Source of the DNA: Armatimonadota bacterium | GTDB taxonomy: Bacteria > Armatimonadota > HRBIN16 | Assembly: GCA_963677485.1 (NCBI GenBank) | Contig: OY781964.1 | Location: 2,368,001-2,432,000 of the forward strand | DNA length: 64,000 nt | Reading direction: 5' to 3' | Shown: positions 41,161 to 46,662 of the stretch, piece by piece | Layout: the number at the start of each line of letters is the position of its first letter | Numbering within the stretch: the first letter of the stretch is position 1 | Program-made: the position numbers and the translations under genes | Notes under the pieces: generated by a model | Seen by the model: the letters and a program-made list of their open reading frames with translations, nothing else | Told to the model about the DNA's origin: nothing | Databases searched by the model: none

Positions 41161-41466
41161 GACTGGTCTATAGACCGCGCCGGTCTAGTTCCTGACACAA
41201 ATCTATTCGGGCTATCCGCCTAACCCGCGCGGTCTCGAGCCTTCTGCATCCGCTAGCCTGCGCACAGACCGCCCCGGACATAGGCAACGCTTGACCGTTA
41301 AAGAGGCGAACAGCCATTCGCATATCACCTATCGCCTCAGTGTGACGCGCGAGTTACAACATGGGCAGCCGTGACCGCAAGTGCAGGCGATTGGGCCTAT
41401 ATGGGCGACGTGGGGTTATTTCAGGTATTCTTATATCAAAGCCCGTCAACTTGGAGGCCCGCATCT

Positions 41467-42288
41467 ATGATCTGCTTAACTGGCGACCTTCATCACCAAT
41501 CGCTCTGCACCGGCAATCAGCAGGCTTGCGACATCACCGAAATAGAGGTCGCTCAGCGGTATAACGCGATGATCGCGGAACTCGGCATTAAGGTCACTTA
41601 CTTCGTTTCCGGCAAGAGCTTTCAGGACCAATGGTCTGAACTTGAGCCGATATGCAAAAGCCACAATGTGGAGATCGGCGGTCATAACTGGGCCTGCTTC
41701 AAGCCTGCCCTGCCGCACCGCATCTGGAAGAAGCTGACCGGCAGCTACAATGGCCCCCTGAAAACCCAGCAAGCCGATGCACAGCGCACGATGGAGATCA
41801 TCAAGCAAAAGACCGGCCGCGATGTGGTCTGCTGGCGTAACCATATGTACATGCATGGCCCCTTCACTGAGCAAGCGCTTTACAATGCGGGCATCAAGGT
41901 GTGCAGCGATGGCGTGAAATCCGCCTCCACGGGTGGGGAATGGCACGAAACCGGACTGTTGAGCCTGCCGCTGAACATCCTGCCGGACCACGAACACCTC
42001 TACCATGCCGAACGAACCCCCGCATGGGTGAAGTGGTGGCAGAAGCGGTACAACTGGAGCGATGACTTCGGCCCTCAGAGCTACTATGTGGAAGAGTGGA
42101 CGGACATCGTGCTGCAGCAGCTTGCCGACCATGAGCGCAAGGGGACCATGAGCACCTTGATAATCCATCCCATCACCCTATACCTGTGCGATGGCTTCCG
42201 CAGCTTCCAGAGGATTTTGAGTTATCTGGCGGATCATGAGACCGTCTGGATGAGCGAAGTTTACCAGAAAGCGTTGGTGAAGCCATGA
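41467..42288 (+). CDS. Polysaccharide deacetylase (NodB-like)
   Basis: CLTGDLHH, TYFVSG, EIGGHN, IIHP; GGAGG RBS before ATG 41467. Confidence 0.75.
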   Translation: MICLTGDLHHQSLCTGNQQACDITEIEVAQRYNAMIAELGIKVTYFVSGKSFQDQWSELEPICKSHNVEIGGHNWACFKPALPHRIWKKLTGSYNGPLKTQQADAQRTMEIIKQKTGRDVVCWRNHMYMHGPFTEQALYNAGIKVCSDGVKSASTGGEWHETGLLSLPLNILPDHEHLYHAERTPAWVKWWQKRYNWSDDFGPQSYYVEEWTDIVLQQLADHERKGTMSTLIIHPITLYLCDGFRSFQRILSYLADHETVWMSEVYQKALVKP

Positions 42289-43178
42289 GCGCGCGGGTGA
42301 GTATTATCATGCGCAGCAAGAACAGCGCGTGGGTCATTGACCAGGCATTGAAGGCACTCTATAGTCAGGAATACCGCGATTTTGAGCTGTATGTGGTGGA
42401 CAGTGGCTCCACTGACAATACGCTGGAGATGGTCAAAGCCTACCCATGCCATCTGCGCAGCATCGAGGCGAAGAGCTACTATCCTGGCGCGGTGTTGAAT
42501 GAGGCGATTGAGCTCACTCCGGGAGAGCTAGTGGTGTTTGTGAACTCCGATGCAGTGCTGCTCAGCCCGAAGAGTCTCACGCGGCTGGTGGCGGCGTTTA
42601 ATGATCCTGCCGTGATGGCGGCGTTTGGTCGGCAGCTCTACCGTCCAGAGGCTGACGGTTGGGTGAAGCGCGACTACGTGGCCAGTTTCCCGGAGGAGGG
42701 TGAAGCCCCGCCTTGGATGAAGATGAGTCTACCCTTCGCGGCCATGCGCCGCAGCGCCTGGGATAAATTGAAGTTCTACACCGATGCCTGGGGCAGCGAA
42801 GATACCGACTGGGGCAACAAAGCGCGCGAAAACGGTTGGAAAGTGGCTTATGTGTCCGATGCGATTTTGATGCACAGTCACAACTACACGCTGAAGCAGT
42901 TATACGGCCGCCGGTTTATTGAGGGCGAGGCCGACGCTTTTATTTATCGTGATAGTGACAACCTGCCCAAAATGCTCAAGCGGGTGATTAGCTCATGTCT
43001 TCGCGACGGCTGGCACCATCTGCGGACGTGTGATGTGGGCGGTATGATGGCCATCGTGCCCCGTCGCAGCGTCTACCAGTGGGCCTATTACAAGGGGCAT
43101 CGACTGGGTGAAACCCGCATCCGCGAGAACGACACCGACACCAGCAAAGGCCAGGGCGTGGTCCTCGACCGGCAGTAG
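42285..43178 (+). CDS. GT2 glycosyltransferase
   Basis: VSIIM, VDSGSTD, NSD, SED, HSH; ATGA overlap. Confidence 0.9.
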   Translation: MSARVSIIMRSKNSAWVIDQALKALYSQEYRDFELYVVDSGSTDNTLEMVKAYPCHLRSIEAKSYYPGAVLNEAIELTPGELVVFVNSDAVLLSPKSLTRLVAAFNDPAVMAAFGRQLYRPEADGWVKRDYVASFPEEGEAPPWMKMSLPFAAMRRSAWDKLKFYTDAWGSEDTDWGNKARENGWKVAYVSDAILMHSHNYTLKQLYGRRFIEGEADAFIYRDSDNLPKMLKRVISSCLRDGWHHLRTCDVGGMMAIVPRRSVYQWAYYKGHRLGETRIRENDTDTSKGQGVVLDRQ

Positions 43179-43196: not shown

Positions 43197-43327
43197 CCTG
43201 GGAACGCCAATCTCCCGATTGGCCTCCCGCCTGGTGAAGGTAAGCCTCCCATCGGTCAGATCGGTCGAATCCGTCCGATGGGGCATACCTCATACAGCGC
43301 ATATGGGACCAAGACCGGCGCGGTTAG
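43197..43327. repeat. Left part of composite repeat interrupted by the mobile element
   Basis: Colinear with 48243-48374. Confidence 0.8.
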
Positions 43328-44983
43328 TATCTTACCAACCATATTTTGAACACGGTGTATAGAATATTCTGATATTACGCACCACACAAAGCGTTAGGCA
43401 CAACGATCTGGCGAATAGCAAGTGCTGCCATGATGATACGCTTGCCAAGTGCAGTGAGGTAGTATTTGTAGCGTTTACCGCATTTTTTAACGAGCCGGAA
43501 TACTCGGCATCGCTTGATGAAGTATGATATCTGAGAGCTGGACATCTGCGGTAAGGCTTTTTGAAGCATACGGTTTGTGATCCCGCTGATGCATCCCTCT
43601 CCGCGAGCAAGTGCAATGAGACATTCCAAATCCTTCTTGAGGAAAAGGTTGAATCCTCGATACGAGCGATGATCACGGGTGGTCGAGGTCGCGATTTTGA
43701 TGATCTGATGTTCACCATCGCTGTTGTCATCAAGGGCGGAAAGAAAGTCAAGATATCTGTTGTTTGCAGATAATAACAGTTCCCTCAATGGAGGAAGGCT
43801 GTAGATGGTCTTTTGCATAGGGGCGTATTTAATCTCAGTCGTCCCATCATGATGTTCTACCTCACGGTAGTGTTTAAATTCAGAGACGTCATTCACAGTC
43901 GTCTCGATACGCAAGATTATCCCTTGCTTGTCATACATTTTGATAGAAGCCCATCCCATGTAGTGTTTGATGCGCGTGCCTTGTATGCGGCGATCGAACT
44001 TGTAGTCAGTGCCGATCTCAGCGAGTGTTCGCCCATCAAGTTTCTTACCAAGAAACATCGCGATAGACTCTGGCGTTACCGTATGTATCGCTGTTTTGAC
44101 TAGATTATCGTAGATGGCTTTGAGGTCTTCGGCGCGTTTGAACACGATGTCTGTAGCATATTCCACCTGCATTAGCGACCAATGATATGAATTGTCAGCA
44201 AGCCGTATCACGGGGCAATACATTCTGGCAAATGCATCCAGCGCATGGTGCAGCTTATCAGCAGGAAAAGCGTCTGCCAGCCTCTGAGCACAGCTAAAGT
44301 CGTCGATTTTTACAAAGGCGTTGTCCAGTGGAGTGAAAACTACTCCCTCGGATTGAAGGCAATGCGCGAGATAATTGTGTCCATTACAATAGAATTGCAG
44401 ACGGAAGGGCACCCAGGTCGGAACTCGTAGATAGCACAGTCCAAACTCTGCATCGATGAAATAGAAGTAGTAATGAAGACACTTGGTCTCCTTGATATTC
44501 AGCCGGGTTTTGTGGGTAATCTTGTCGTGCCACGGGGTGTATGCAGGACATTTTTCCAACACTGAGAATATGTGGACGAGACCGGGGTGACACCCTCGAC
44601 TACTAATGATCTCTTTGATGCGGTCTTCTTTTCGAAATGAAGAGGCACGGCGTATATACTCAATTTCAATGCTGTTGGTAACGGCAAGGCGTTCCGCATT
44701 GGCTTTGATCTCATCTCGTAGAGGTTCGGCAAATTCCTTAGGAAAGTCAAATAGCCTGATGTTGCGTTGATGAAGATAGATGCCCATTCCGTCGCTATGA
44801 CACCAGCCTGGGATTGTACCGGTGATAACTATGCGGTCGAAGCATGAATATACCCCAGCTATCTGCTTTGCATAGCGTTCTTGAAGTGATGTCATTCTGG
44901 GCAACCTCACGAAAGGGTGTTTGAATGTATATTACGTGGCGAATGCAATCATTCCTTTTTTGGTTGCGGCTAAGCCGCCTTAG
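43328..44983 (-). mobile_element. Single-gene insertion element bounded by TTAG, no long TIRs
   Basis: TTAG at 43324-43327 and 44980-44983; removing the element restores family B; terminal hairpin GCGGCTAAGCCGC; AT-richer than flanks. Confidence 0.85.
43375..44895 (-). CDS. Putative Rep_trans-like transposase/relaxase with C-terminal winged helix
   Basis: QVEYATD and SIKMYDK..ILRIETT motifs; wHTH ending YYLTALG; fills the element. Confidence 0.6.
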   Translation of the reverse strand: MTSLQERYAKQIAGVYSCFDRIVITGTIPGWCHSDGMGIYLHQRNIRLFDFPKEFAEPLRDEIKANAERLAVTNSIEIEYIRRASSFRKEDRIKEIISSRGCHPGLVHIFSVLEKCPAYTPWHDKITHKTRLNIKETKCLHYYFYFIDAEFGLCYLRVPTWVPFRLQFYCNGHNYLAHCLQSEGVVFTPLDNAFVKIDDFSCAQRLADAFPADKLHHALDAFARMYCPVIRLADNSYHWSLMQVEYATDIVFKRAEDLKAIYDNLVKTAIHTVTPESIAMFLGKKLDGRTLAEIGTDYKFDRRIQGTRIKHYMGWASIKMYDKQGIILRIETTVNDVSEFKHYREVEHHDGTTEIKYAPMQKTIYSLPPLRELLLSANNRYLDFLSALDDNSDGEHQIIKIATSTTRDHRSYRGFNLFLKKDLECLIALARGEGCISGITNRMLQKALPQMSSSQISYFIKRCRVFRLVKKCGKRYKYYLTALGKRIIMAALAIRQIVVPNALCGA

Positions 44984-45315
44984 GTAAAACCGCCCCGGAC
45001 TTCGGCAATCAAGACCGCGCTCGTATGGCGGATACCCCCTGGGAACGCAGGTCTCCCAAAGCTCATAATGACTATGTCCGGGGCGGTCTTTCGGTACACT
45101 TGCGTTTGCTGTGCAGATATCGACCGCGCCGGTCTGGCGGTTAGCCCGAAAGCTCTTGACCCGAGGACCAAGACCGGCGCGGTTAGGGGAAACCCGCCCC
45201 GGACTTCGGCGACTATTATCTACCAAAGCTCACAATGCCTATGTCCGGAGCGGTCTTTCGGTACGCTTGCGTTTGCTGTGCAGATATCGACCGCGCCGGT
45301 CTGGCGGTTAGCCCT
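44984..45315. repeat. Right part of composite repeat with tandem family B units
   Basis: Near-identical to 48375-48605; internal duplication 45054-45147 / 45224-45314. Confidence 0.85.
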
Positions 45316-45327
45316 AAAACTCCTTGC

Positions 45328-46662
45328 CTAACTCACTCCACGCGGTCTTCGTGAGACGATGGCGAGAAACCCTCCGCTGGCCAGTGTCAGCAGAAGCAGC
45401 ACCGCCCACACATCCGAACCGCCCTTCGCAGCTGATGTGATGATCGTGATCAGCAGGTTGGTGTTGGCCGAATGAGCACTCGGAATCGGCAGCCACAACA
45501 GGGTCACCACGATGGCTAGGAACAACCCGGGGTTGACTCGCCATTGCAGTTTTAAGGCCTGGTAGAGCATCGAAAGCGCAGCCGTCAGCAGCGACACCGA
45601 CAACGGTACGAACAGCAGTATTGCTTCCACGCGGCTGCAGAACCCGCCCAGCACACGGGCTGGCAGAGCCATCAACTGCCAAAGAATGACGTGCAACATC
45701 ACCCACGACAGTAGGTGCAGCATGCTTCGCCGCGCATTCCCTGCTTGTAGCCACTGCCCGCGGCTGATACGCGAGAACACACCATAATACAGGCACAAGA
45801 AGAAGAGCGAAATTTGCGGCAGGGGTATAGCTGGCCTGAGGCTGTCGCACCAGTTCCCACTGCAGGGGTATTCCATTTGAAAATGAAACATTACCATGGC
45901 AGTGGGTATCAATAAAAACAACCCATAAAGACTTCCCACCCGCAAACCGGCTGAGGGTGTGACCACGACTTTTGCCCAGCGCTCCTCACTCACATATGAA
46001 AAGCCCAGACAAATAAAGATCGTGGCCAGCATCGAAGGCAGCAAATATGATGGGAAGCGGTAATCAAAGCGGTGTAATGATTGAGTATTGGCAGTCAACA
46101 CAGTCACAATATCGGGCACTTCATACCCAAGTGTTGGCTTACCAACAAGTAAGCCACTGCCGCGTAGACACAACCAGTAGGTCACAGCCATGCCCAGCAC
46201 GGCAGATATCGCCTGAAGCGGCTTGCCGCGGTTGAGCCTGCCGGCAAACTGCCCAATCGCTGAATAGCACAACCAAAACATTAGTATCCGAAGCACGTAG
46301 CCTGTGTCTGGTGCCGACATCTTAAAAAACGTCACCCCGACCACTTCGGTCACCATCATCAGTACGAGGCCAATGGAACTGGGCAGAATCCAGTATGCCA
46401 GCACTCGAAATAATGGCTTATTGGACACCGCATCGGCATCCGCACTGCGATTTGCGTTCACCGCCGCGGTGAACATCGCACTGCCGATGATCAGCACGAC
46501 GTGCATGATGCTCTGCAGCCTGAGCGATTGCTGAGCATTGTGAGCGTAAAAGCGGTACACCACGGCGGTTACCACTCCAGTCAGCACCATCGTCAGAACG
46601 AACGGGAATGGTGCAGGTATCATACGTTGGGGTTTGAGGGGTATCTGCTCCATTGCTTTCAT
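45328..46662 (-). CDS. Polytopic membrane protein of unknown function, paralog b
   Basis: Many TM segments; AIGQFAGRLN, EYPCSGNW, LTLASGG shared with neighbour. Confidence 0.75.
   Translation of the reverse strand: MKAMEQIPLKPQRMIPAPFPFVLTMVLTGVVTAVVYRFYAHNAQQSLRLQSIMHVVLIIGSAMFTAAVNANRSADADAVSNKPLFRVLAYWILPSSIGLVLMMVTEVVGVTFFKMSAPDTGYVLRILMFWLCYSAIGQFAGRLNRGKPLQAISAVLGMAVTYWLCLRGSGLLVGKPTLGYEVPDIVTVLTANTQSLHRFDYRFPSYLLPSMLATIFICLGFSYVSEERWAKVVVTPSAGLRVGSLYGLFLLIPTAMVMFHFQMEYPCSGNWCDSLRPAIPLPQISLFFLCLYYGVFSRISRGQWLQAGNARRSMLHLLSWVMLHVILWQLMALPARVLGGFCSRVEAILLFVPLSVSLLTAALSMLYQALKLQWRVNPGLFLAIVVTLLWLPIPSAHSANTNLLITIITSAAKGGSDVWAVLLLLTLASGGFLAIVSRRPRGVS

Follow-up and report, generated by a model that had tools for sequence, protein, structure and literature searches.

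Transposons are classified by the chemistry of their transposases, and to our knowledge the recognised prokaryotic types are DDE, DEDD, HUH (Y1 and Y2), serine, tyrosine and Cas1. The Replitron preprint counts three transposon groups mobilised by Rep proteins that had been described before, IS200/IS605, IS91/ISCR and the Helitrons, all of which belong to the HUH type. The initiators of the Rep_trans family are known from plasmids, filamentous phages and conjugative transposons (PMC13107129), and their fold resembles that of the TATA-binding protein (TBP) (PMC4797284, PMC13107129). According to Carr et al. (PMC4797284), the active site of Rep_trans comprises D46, R140-x-D142-x-A144-x-D146, R189-x-Y191-x-K193 and R212-x-E214 on beta strands that face a cavity, with Y191 as the nucleophile and a metal on D46, D142 and E214. 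Here we report on a 1656-bp element in a 64,000-nt stretch of the genome of an Armatimonadota bacterium (assembly GCA_963677485.1, contig OY781964.1, positions 2,368,001 to 2,432,000 of the forward strand). This stretch is called the window below, and positions are counted from its first letter. The element interrupts a copy of a palindromic repeat, referred to here as family B, and had been proposed from the letters alone (the original prediction) to be a rolling-circle transposon with a Rep_trans-like enzyme. We find that it is almost certainly an active insertion sequence, and that its transposase is probably a Rep_trans-like tyrosine nickase, in which case the insertion-sequence family would be a new one.

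Insertion point, copies and target site

The left flank of the element ends in GACCGGCGCGG-TTAG, with the tetranucleotide at 43324-43327. The element itself begins with TATCTT at 43328 and ends with GCCGCC-TTAG at 44983, after which a G at 44984 leads into the remainder of the family B repeat. Both repeat halves are contiguous in an uninterrupted family B copy nearby (45165-45210). Genome-wide, the family B word followed by TTAG is found in 80 copies, 79 of which are intact, and 76 of these 79 continue after TTAG with a G, an A-rich stretch and CCGCCCCGGAC. The element thus splits the repeat exactly, between two copies of TTAG as the original prediction had it. Nothing is lost or duplicated besides the ambiguous TTAG, and removal of 1656 bp restores the repeat. 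The same length is obtained from a genome of the same genus (G001) that has an empty orthologous coding site, which measures 38 nt against 38 nt once exactly 1656 bp are removed. Because this removal restores the coding length of G001, and because it agrees with the consensus of the B repeat, the G at 44984 is assigned to the flank. A further empty-site comparison, at locus L009, gave repeat matches only. The word GACCGGCGCGG itself occurs 674 times in the genome when one mismatch is allowed, in several repeat contexts, and is followed by TCTT 137 times, by TCTA 98 times and by TTAG 80 times.

Twenty-two copies of the element, 99-100% identical, are present in the 5.22-Mb genome, and the 506-aa frame is open in all of them. 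Among the 21 copies whose flanks were compared, the flanks are unrelated beyond five junction positions. Public assemblies of the same organism contain the element as a contig of its own (corresponding to 43328-44984), with a depth of 187.6 compared to 8.97 for the flank, which is about 21-fold. It was not found in the two same-genus genomes examined, while relatives are multi-copy in several other assemblies. Neither gene-less derivatives nor solo ends were found in this genome, as none of its 22 left ends and 21 right ends is lonely. The G+C content is about 0.46 inside the element and about 0.58 in its flanks. Overall, the element is an autonomous insertion sequence, and its single protein is the putative transposase. 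About 3 kb separates two copies that share their orientation (G000:C1:3219952-3221611 and 3224647-3226306; L006 and L005), and this pair could be a composite transposon or a deletion substrate.

Both ends could be read in register for 21 of the 22 copies. The 4-mer to the left of the element is TTAG in 17 of them, ATAG in three and TTAA in one, whereas the TTAG at the right end is invariant and the next base is G in all 21. Since the left and right 4-mers differ in four of 21 otherwise identical copies, TTAG is not a target-site duplication, and since all four variants are on the left, the left 4-mer is the target and the right TTAG belongs to the element. A relative with six copies in another assembly behaves alike: in gene orientation its 3' flank is CTAA in three copies, CTCA in two and CTTA in one, and its 5' CTAA is constant. 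When both genomes are taken together, all seven variant 4-mers are on the target side. TTAG is thus a shared core, of which one copy comes from the target and the other from the element, and there is no target-site duplication. This is what had been proposed in place of a staggered-cut duplication.

The proposal that the element targets the palindromic repeat, by contrast, did not hold up. Family B contains only the present one of the 21 copies. Of the 3684 TTAGG sites in the genome, 76 are within intact B copies, so that random use of such sites would place 0.43 copies in B, with a probability of 0.35 for at least one. As the occupancy of B is close to chance, targeting of the repeat is unsupported, and the target is instead the short motif (T/A)TA(G/A)|G, which family B happens to contain.

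The ends of the element are asymmetric. There are no terminal inverted repeats, in agreement with the earlier view that long ones are missing: the list of inverted repeats holds the arms of the flanking B repeats and short pairs of the size expected by chance. The short inverted words CAACCA and TGGTTG that had been noticed near the two ends are both present. Two hairpins had also been proposed, and one of them stands. The right-end hairpin GCGGC-TAA-GCCGC (44966-44978) is the minimum-energy fold of this end on both strands (z -1.8 and -2.3), whereas the imperfect hairpin at the left end (43341-43367) folds no better than shuffled sequence (z -0.05, + strand). A left-end fold-back that includes the flank CTAA was likewise not significant (z -1.0). 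Rfam gave no match on the element, and a promoter and terminator scan of it gave nothing above shuffles.

Fold and motifs of the encoded protein

The 506-aa gene makes up 92% of the element, and no second credible open reading frame (ORF) is present. Pfam yielded no family for the protein at E <= 1 and NCBIfam yielded none, and the protein has no H-x-H pattern, which agrees with the earlier statement that it lacks an obvious DDE, HUH or serine/tyrosine recombinase signature. Conservation was assessed in 68 diverse relatives with 28-77% identity. Across these relatives no His is invariant, the only recurrent Pfam or PHROG matches are winged-helix families, and Rep_trans is absent among the best 25 of the 56 Pfam families that they match at E <= 10. 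A feature search of the ESM Atlas returned unnamed clusters only, at 0.79-0.82, which is below its trust level.

The structure was predicted using AlphaFold2 with the 68-sequence alignment, and gave a predicted local distance difference test (pLDDT) score of 93.1 and a predicted template-modelling (pTM) score of 0.81 for the whole protein. The N-terminal domain (residues 1-392) was also folded alone (pLDDT 95.4, pTM 0.92), since the winged helix swamped the match lists of the whole model. This C-terminal winged helix matches regulators of the MarR/HxlR type at VIA Z scores of 8-10, which explains why relatives are annotated as regulators, as had been anticipated when a C-terminal helix-turn-helix was first suspected. 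The N-terminal domain is modelled as a double repeat of one strand, one helix and four strands. In a VIA-align comparison of this domain with 48161 PDB chains, for which the tool sets a caution line at Z 8, three chains reach Z 8 and 33 reach Z 5. All three are TBPs aligned over their whole length, namely 1mp9_B (Z 9.0, 180 of 189 residues, root-mean-square deviation (rmsd) 3.9), 7o4i_O (Z 8.4, 175 of 181, rmsd 3.5) and 5fur_A (Z 8.3, 175 of 180, rmsd 3.4). Rep_trans is the next family after the TBPs, with the structures 4cij, 4cwc and 4cwe among the top matches (RepDE 4cwc_A, Z 7.3, 180 aligned, rmsd 5.3; RepSTK1 4cij_A, Z 7.1, 196 aligned, rmsd 5.0, 14% identity). Foldseek, which had been suggested for the comparison with Rep_trans, ranks four 4cij chains first in the PDB (E 3.6e-4 to 4.5e-4, probability 0.97-0.99). 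In the viral library BFVD the domain has 17 matches at E <= 1e-3, including viral TBPs and A0A345MNV4 (E 5.3e-5, probability 1.00), which is an Inoviridae Rep_trans protein according to a 2026 paper (PMC13107129). The predicted fold is TBP-like. No DDE, HUH, recombinase or nuclease fold is among the structural matches listed, and the match of the lone RNase H entry (RNase H3 3vn5_A) is both weak and partial (rank 46, Z 4.8, 69 aligned residues).

Several conserved polar residues of the protein recall the Rep_trans active site. D20, E245, K319, Y321, R329 and E331 are present in 68 of the 68 relatives, K323 and D249 in 67, Q243 in 55 (E in 12) and A247 in 50 (S in 18). These residues are located on predicted strands 12-27, 238-252, 316-323 and 327-334, which follow the order of Rep_trans: D20 is on strand 1, Q243-V-E245-Y-A247-T-D249 forms the first strand of the second repeat, and K319-M-Y321-D-K323 and R329-I-E331 are on the last two. 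The first position of the tyrosine motif is K here and R in Rep_trans. In addition, H-x-Y143-x-Y145, N171 and D191-N192 are invariant and specific to this family.

A profile comparison points to the same segment. The Rep_trans alignment consisted of 16 proteins, i.e., 13 matches to the Pfam model from 13 of 401 same-phylum genomes and three pT181-type Reps, and most of them carry R-I-Y-D-K. Against this set hhalign returned a single local match, which places I-K-M-Y-D-K...L-R-I-E on I-R-I-Y-D-K...I-R-V-E with P 0.004. Its score of 31.4 was reached by none of 94 column shuffles (maximum 25.4), and the reversed profile scored 18.6. As a scale, the archaeal initiator family Rep-Arvir gave P 0.13 against the same Rep_trans set, and a single RepC fragment gave our profile a probability of 0.1. 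The original prediction had equated MYDK..LRIE with the Y-x-K and R-x-E of Rep_trans, and this pairing is supported by the invariant residues and by hhalign. It had also equated QVEYATD with the R-x-D-x-A-x-D strand; here, pattern and strand order suggest the equivalence, and the alignments do not pair the two.

Relatives, conserved ends and described systems

A homologue search at 90% clustering found at least 7998 significant relatives (among 8000 candidates scored), mostly 505-508 aa long and many of them on contigs of 1.6-2.4 kb. In public records they are named hypothetical protein or MarR/ArsR regulator. An exhaustive search of 50%-identity representatives gave 6547 clusters at E <= 1e-3, a number that falls to 659 at E <= 1e-30, and 15 plasmid records carry relatives, annotated as ArsR regulator or hypothetical. 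In species-representative genomes, a relative is encoded in 448 of 461 candidate stretches, from which 79 loci were kept. These loci span Acidobacteriota, Chloroflexota, Armatimonadota, Desulfobacterota, Planctomycetota, Actinomycetes, Nitrospirota, Bacteroidetes, Proteobacteria and two archaeal bins. Among 40 relatives of the present genome one distant homologue only was found, a patchy distribution of the kind expected for an element that moves horizontally. The relatives make up a very large insertion-sequence family that is labelled mobile by none of the databases searched. A full-text literature search found no paper in which a transposase or an insertion sequence is linked to Rep_trans or to the TBP-like fold; ISfinder lay outside this search, and there is a small chance that the family is already named there or in a paper that the search did not reach.

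The 5' end of the element in gene orientation has the form c|CTAA-N-(5-bp stem, 3-nt loop)-AACCAAA at 66 of the 79 loci, within 260 nt upstream of the gene. The flank C, the CTAA and the AACCAA (A25-A30) are invariant in all 53 distinct 5' end sequences, which come from many phyla. In the hairpin stem 94% of the cells are paired. Two of the five pairs change on both sides, in nine cells, from C-G to U-A (four and three sequences) or to G-C (two sequences), and no one-sided changes are seen in those two pairs. Because of these compensatory changes, we conclude that the stem is maintained in the relatives; the covariation score was reached by none of 500 shuffles, and all slid controls scored far lower. 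The 3' end has the form T(A/T)AG-N-N-A followed by the flank CTAA in 36 of 51 distinct related elements (37 regex matches, one of which was judged spurious by eye), and the remaining elements mostly belong to an Acidobacteria-type subgroup that ends in TAGGTA|CTNA. The flank at the 37 matches is CTAA in 33, CTAT in two and TTAA in one, with CTTT at the spurious one. The related elements are 1.6-1.9 kb long. Since gene and ends are conserved across loci, both travel together as one unit.

A few of these loci have unusual 3' flanks. Past the 3' junction at L080:4049-4124 there is a tandem repeat, (CTAAGTAC) x 9.5, with 100% identity, in which each unit recreates the end motif, and the 3' flanks of L060 and L070 contain 7-nt repeats that include CTAA. 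Such repeats might have been left behind by nicking and joining that slipped, or took place repeatedly, at the terminus. At L050:4050-4091 and L113:2305-2346, the CTAA that flanks a first element on its 3' side is exactly where a second one begins, whose hairpin loop differs in sequence. As the first elements end in C, their 3' junction forms a C|CTAA target, and the two elements are thus head-to-tail pairs.

More distant homologues exist as well. One in another genome of the phylum (L024:886-2340, genome G027) has 24% identity over residues 139-348 and keeps H-Y-Y-F-Y, N-G-H, K-Q-Y-F-K and R-T-E-T-T. In its counterpart of the Q-x-E-x-A-x-D strand A/D are replaced by S/T, and it matches nothing in Pfam or NCBIfam. 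Similar relatives, with 22-25% identity, are found on Rhodococcus, Burkholderia and Mycobacterium plasmids. The superfamily is thus broader than this insertion sequence.

With Rep_trans (PF02486; RepC/RepD of pT181/pC221, RepSTK1, ICEBs1 NicK, and MOBT relaxases, e.g., RelSt3) the protein shares the TBP-like double-repeat catalytic fold and the [K/R]-x-Y-x-K and R-x-E motifs on consecutive beta strands, to which, going by pattern and strand order, an x-(D/E)-x-A-x-D strand and an N-terminal acidic residue may be added. The segment with the Tyr and the R-x-E aligns at the profile level, a DNA hairpin adjoins the presumed nick, and a separate DNA-binding domain follows the catalytic domain. The differences are that there is no match at the level of hidden Markov models (HMMs), the protein being outside PF02486, that the catalytic domain is about 390 aa long compared to about 200-270, and that H-x-Y143-x-Y145, N171 and D191-N192 are invariant here. 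Furthermore, the carrier is a 1.66-kb multi-copy insertion sequence rather than a plasmid, a phage or a conjugative element. The presumed nick is 5 nt past the hairpin, whereas in pT181-type origins the nick is made within the loop.

Rep-Arvir (DUF7845, PF25227), found in archaeal pleolipoviruses and plasmids, has a similar layout, in which a TBP-like catalytic domain (300-390 aa) precedes a MarR-like winged helix that begins near residue 395 (PMC13107129). In both, the acidic strand and the Tyr are 76 residues apart, with D207 and Y283 in SNJ2 ORF19 (PMC13107129) and E245 and Y321 here. Both are often annotated as MarR regulators; haloarchaeal DUF7845 proteins (P0421, P0425, P0432 and others) are widely named MarR family transcriptional regulator. 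In spite of this likeness there is no profile similarity, as hhalign against 35 DUF7845 proteins gave P 0.24 in an unrelated region, and our protein has no DUF7845 match in Pfam; HRPV-3 ORF9, used as a control, matches DUF7845 at 5.1e-115. The context of the Tyr also differs, K-H-Y-Y-M compared to K-M-Y-D-K here. According to PMC13107129, Rep-Arvir is an archaea-exclusive replication protein of viruses, plasmids and integrative elements, whereas the present family is mostly bacterial and forms an insertion sequence. According to the same source, Rep-Arvir was assigned via Foldseek scores no better than those obtained here and was then confirmed by mutagenesis.

The DNA of the element is more reminiscent of the HUH transposons. 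Like IS200/IS605 (IS608, ISDra2), it has no terminal inverted repeats, no target-site duplication and asymmetric ends, it inserts directly 3' of a specific tetranucleotide, and its other end has a cleavage tetranucleotide of its own just past a subterminal hairpin. A further likeness may be a weak bias towards the lagging-strand template, which 15 of the 22 copies follow (not significant). The transposase, however, is unrelated, being 506 aa long instead of about 150, with no H-x-H and no Y1_Tnp match. In addition, one conserved hairpin was found here, with a short T(A/T)AG motif at the other end, and the target and element tetranucleotides are identical (TTAG). IS91/ISCR and the Helitrons likewise lack a target-site duplication and have a fixed target tetranucleotide at one end that is repeated at the other end of the element, a hairpin a few bases before the 3' terminus and an enzyme related to rolling-circle initiators. 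Helitrons end in a hairpin followed by CTRR, which resembles the hairpin followed by CTTAG here. They differ from our element in that their enzyme is HUH Y2 and not TBP-like. No helicase domain is present here, and a single Tyr is found in the Rep_trans-like motif, though the invariant Y143 and Y145 exist elsewhere in the protein. Moreover, neither one-ended nor read-through products turned up in this genome.

Proposed mechanism, alternatives and surroundings

Based on the fold, the motifs and the junctions, we propose that the N-terminal domain is catalytic and has the TBP-like double-repeat fold that Rep_trans initiators and MOBT relaxases have, and that the MarR-like winged helix presumably binds the ends of the element. 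Tyr321, in K-x-Y-x-K on its beta strand, would attack the DNA and form a 5'-phosphotyrosine link, with a divalent metal held by E331 (R-x-E), E245 and D249 (Q-x-E-x-A-x-D) and D20 on neighbouring strands. At both junctions the nick would fall directly after TTAG on one strand. This is more likely the + strand of the window, antisense to the gene, because the hairpin (hairpin-C-TTAG|G) then lies 5' of the nick; a recognition structure 5' of the nick is also the arrangement in relaxases and at the right end of IS608. If the two 3'-OH ends were then exchanged, the donor would be resealed as TTAG|G and the element released as a single-stranded circle with one TTAG, and exchange of the circle junction with a TTAG|G target would then give the product that is observed. 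Alternatively, the 3'-OH of the flank at the left nick could prime an IS91-like rolling-circle copy-out, which would generate the same junctions. The data do not choose between circle excision and rolling-circle copy-out, nor between cut-and-paste and replicative transposition, and we regard the single-strand circle pathway as evenly balanced between being right and being wrong. The earlier idea of single-stranded DNA nicking at a hairpin origin stands as far as the hairpin is concerned, which is conserved, covarying and one base away from TTAG; single-stranded DNA nicking and the covalent adduct are what we infer from it and from the protein.

A concerted exchange would need two active sites. 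These could be provided by a Rep_trans-like dimer, or by the invariant H-x-Y143-x-Y145 strand in the first repeat, which may supply a second nucleophile so that one monomer would do both strand transfers. The T(A/T)AG and hairpin-loop N-N-A-G words may read the target CTAA/TTAG by base pairing, in the manner of the IS608 guides, and the target may then be reprogrammable.

Several results weigh against a Rep_trans-like nickase that moves the element as a single strand. Sequence searches of Pfam, NCBIfam, PHROGs and the PDB with the protein, the 68 relatives and their profile found nothing outside the winged helix, and the Rep_trans HMM has no match in the whole genome. The hhalign match has a probability of just 8.5% and covers 14-22 columns. 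None of the hhalign runs, whether global, at low threshold or on trimmed regions, paired Q-V-E-Y-A-T-D with R-x-D-x-A-x-D, and an insignificant alternative alignment (P 0.18) placed the conserved D191-N192 region opposite the latter. The structural scores for Rep_trans are moderate, as the Z values fall below the caution line, the template-modelling (TM) scores are 0.22-0.35 and the rmsd is at least 5 A. TBP, which is not an enzyme, outscores Rep_trans, so the fold alone is no proof of nickase chemistry. A second empty-site comparison (L015 vs G001) left a 2-nt difference in a divergent stretch, and is ambiguous because of this indel. No joint between the right end and the left end was found in the contigs of four public assemblies, and neither was a contig spanning an empty site at this locus, although contigs drop rare forms, so that this result speaks neither for nor against a circle. 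Finally, with the origin and terminus placed near 2.15 Mb and near 4.75 Mb by cumulative GC skew, 15 of the 22 copies have the TTAG strand as lagging-strand template (one-sided binomial P 0.067, not significant). This is the direction expected for single-strand targeting and may reflect a weak bias, while IS200/IS605 elements show a much stronger one.

The best of the alternatives is that the element is a real insertion sequence with its own transposase, which however uses a chemistry other than Rep_trans-like tyrosine nicking. The TBP-like saddle might serve mainly as a DNA-binding platform combined with hydrolysis by acidic residues, or recombination of double-stranded DNA might take place across the 4-bp TTAG core. 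In favour of such a chemistry, the best structural match is a pure DNA binder (Z 9.0 for TBP compared to 7.1-7.3 for Rep_trans), Rep_trans is detected by no sequence model, a TTAG common to element and target suits a core-type crossover, and the orientation bias expected for single-strand transposition is weak. But the invariant residues fit [K/R]-x-Y-x-K and R-x-E on adjacent strands, and it is this segment that hhalign picks. All mismatched cores, four here and three in the other assembly, are one-sided, whereas a staggered crossover with heteroduplex repair would be expected to leave them on either side, and no recombinase or nuclease fold is among the matches listed. We therefore consider another chemistry unlikely, and continue to favour the Rep_trans-like nickase.

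It is less probable still that the element is chiefly a minimal rolling-circle replicon, consisting of a Rep gene and an origin hairpin, and that its genomic copies are integrated episomes. In favour of a replicon, the enzymes of this fold that have been characterised all serve as replication initiators or as conjugative relaxases (PMC4797284, PMC13107129). Many relatives are on 1.6-2.4 kb contigs, and the head-to-tail elements and CTAA tandem repeats in 3' flanks could reflect terminator read-through. However, assemblers give short contigs for any multi-copy repeat, and the 21x depth matches the 22 copies without visible excess. The two ends are joined by no contig in the four public assemblies (with the same limit on rare forms), no second-strand origin or other plasmid function is recognisable in the 1.66 kb, and 22 scattered chromosomal copies are typical of an insertion sequence.

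The remaining possibility, that the protein is a passenger DNA-binding regulator and the element is moved by an enzyme encoded elsewhere, draws on the public MarR/ArsR names of relatives and on a C-terminal domain that is a true winged helix, but is very improbable, given that the gene fills nearly the whole element without a second credible ORF, that gene and ends travel together across phyla and into archaea, that the 390-residue N-terminal domain is the more conserved part and has enzyme-like invariant polar residues, and that this genome has no solo ends or gene-less derivatives.

Other enzyme types were considered and rejected. A DDE transposase does not agree with the absence of terminal inverted repeats, of a target-site duplication and of any match to an insertion-sequence family in Pfam or NCBIfam, nor with the lack of an RNase H-like fold beyond the weak 3vn5_A match. 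An HUH (Y1/Y2) transposase does not agree with the TBP-like fold and the absence of H-x-H, of an invariant His and of a Pfam match. For an IS110-type element with a guide RNA, just 88 and 47 nt of the element are outside the gene. A serine or tyrosine recombinase, a group II intron, and a miniature inverted-repeat transposable element (MITE) or passenger gene were rejected as well.

If the Rep_trans-like reading is correct, a TBP-fold tyrosine nickase would be an added type of transposase. Both known superfamilies of rolling-circle initiators would then have been recruited independently for transposition, in parallel to the route by which HUH Rep proteins gave IS200/IS605, IS91 and Helitrons. 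We lean slightly towards the broader view that this is a further mechanistic class, in which non-HUH TBP-fold initiators (Rep_trans/Rep-Arvir) gave rise to an insertion-sequence family across bacterial phyla and some archaea. Thousands of genes of this family are mislabelled, and genome annotation, mobilome counts and regulator censuses are wrong for them. In metagenomes, many short contigs probably stem from assembly breaks at this element. Being compact, with one protein, no duplication and a 5-nt site, the element is also a candidate tool for the insertion of single-stranded DNA.

The features of the element are collected in Table 1.

Table 1. Features of the insertion sequence and its junctions, in window coordinates
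Feature	Position	Strand	Basis or remark
Target tetranucleotide TTAG	43324..43327	+	Flank, native to the family B repeat and outside the element; intact B copies carry it
Insertion sequence, 1656 bp	43328..44983	- (strand of its gene)	Copies, flank comparison, empty G001 site, separate high-depth contig
Left end (3' end in gene orientation)	43328..43341	+	Gene-orientation end ...GGTAAG-ATA
Subterminal TAAG (CTTA on + strand)	43331..43334		Conserved in relatives
CAACCA	43336..43341		Present at left end
Gene for 506-aa putative transposase	43375..44895	-	ATG at 44895, stop 43375-43377; ORF list
MarR-like winged helix, aa ~395-506	43378..43713	-	Predicted structure
TBP-like/Rep_trans-like domain, aa 1-390	43726..44895	-	Predicted structure
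Tyr321 codon, proposed catalytic nucleophile, in K-M-Y-D-K	43933..43935	-	Conservation and hhalign
TTTGGTT (AACCAAA in gene orientation)	44959..44965	+	Invariant word adjoining the hairpin
TGGTTG	44961..44966		Present at right end
Terminal hairpin GCGGC-TAA-GCCGC, 5-bp stem, 3-nt loop	44966..44978	.	Minimum-energy fold, both strands
Element's own terminal TTAG (CTAA in gene orientation)	44980..44983	+	One base past the hairpin foot
Target base G, required, outside the element	44984	+	G after the element in 21/21 copies

The element is intergenic. On one side, window positions 41371-43178 hold polysaccharide deacetylase-like and family 2 glycosyltransferase genes, and on the other side, positions 45328-46662 encode a 444-aa multi-pass membrane protein on the opposite strand, which has no Pfam match. 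The neighbourhood looks like a cell-envelope polysaccharide locus. Between the element and the membrane protein gene, the window also contains 82-nt direct repeats 167 nt apart (45052-45133 and 45219-45300), which are 94% identical.

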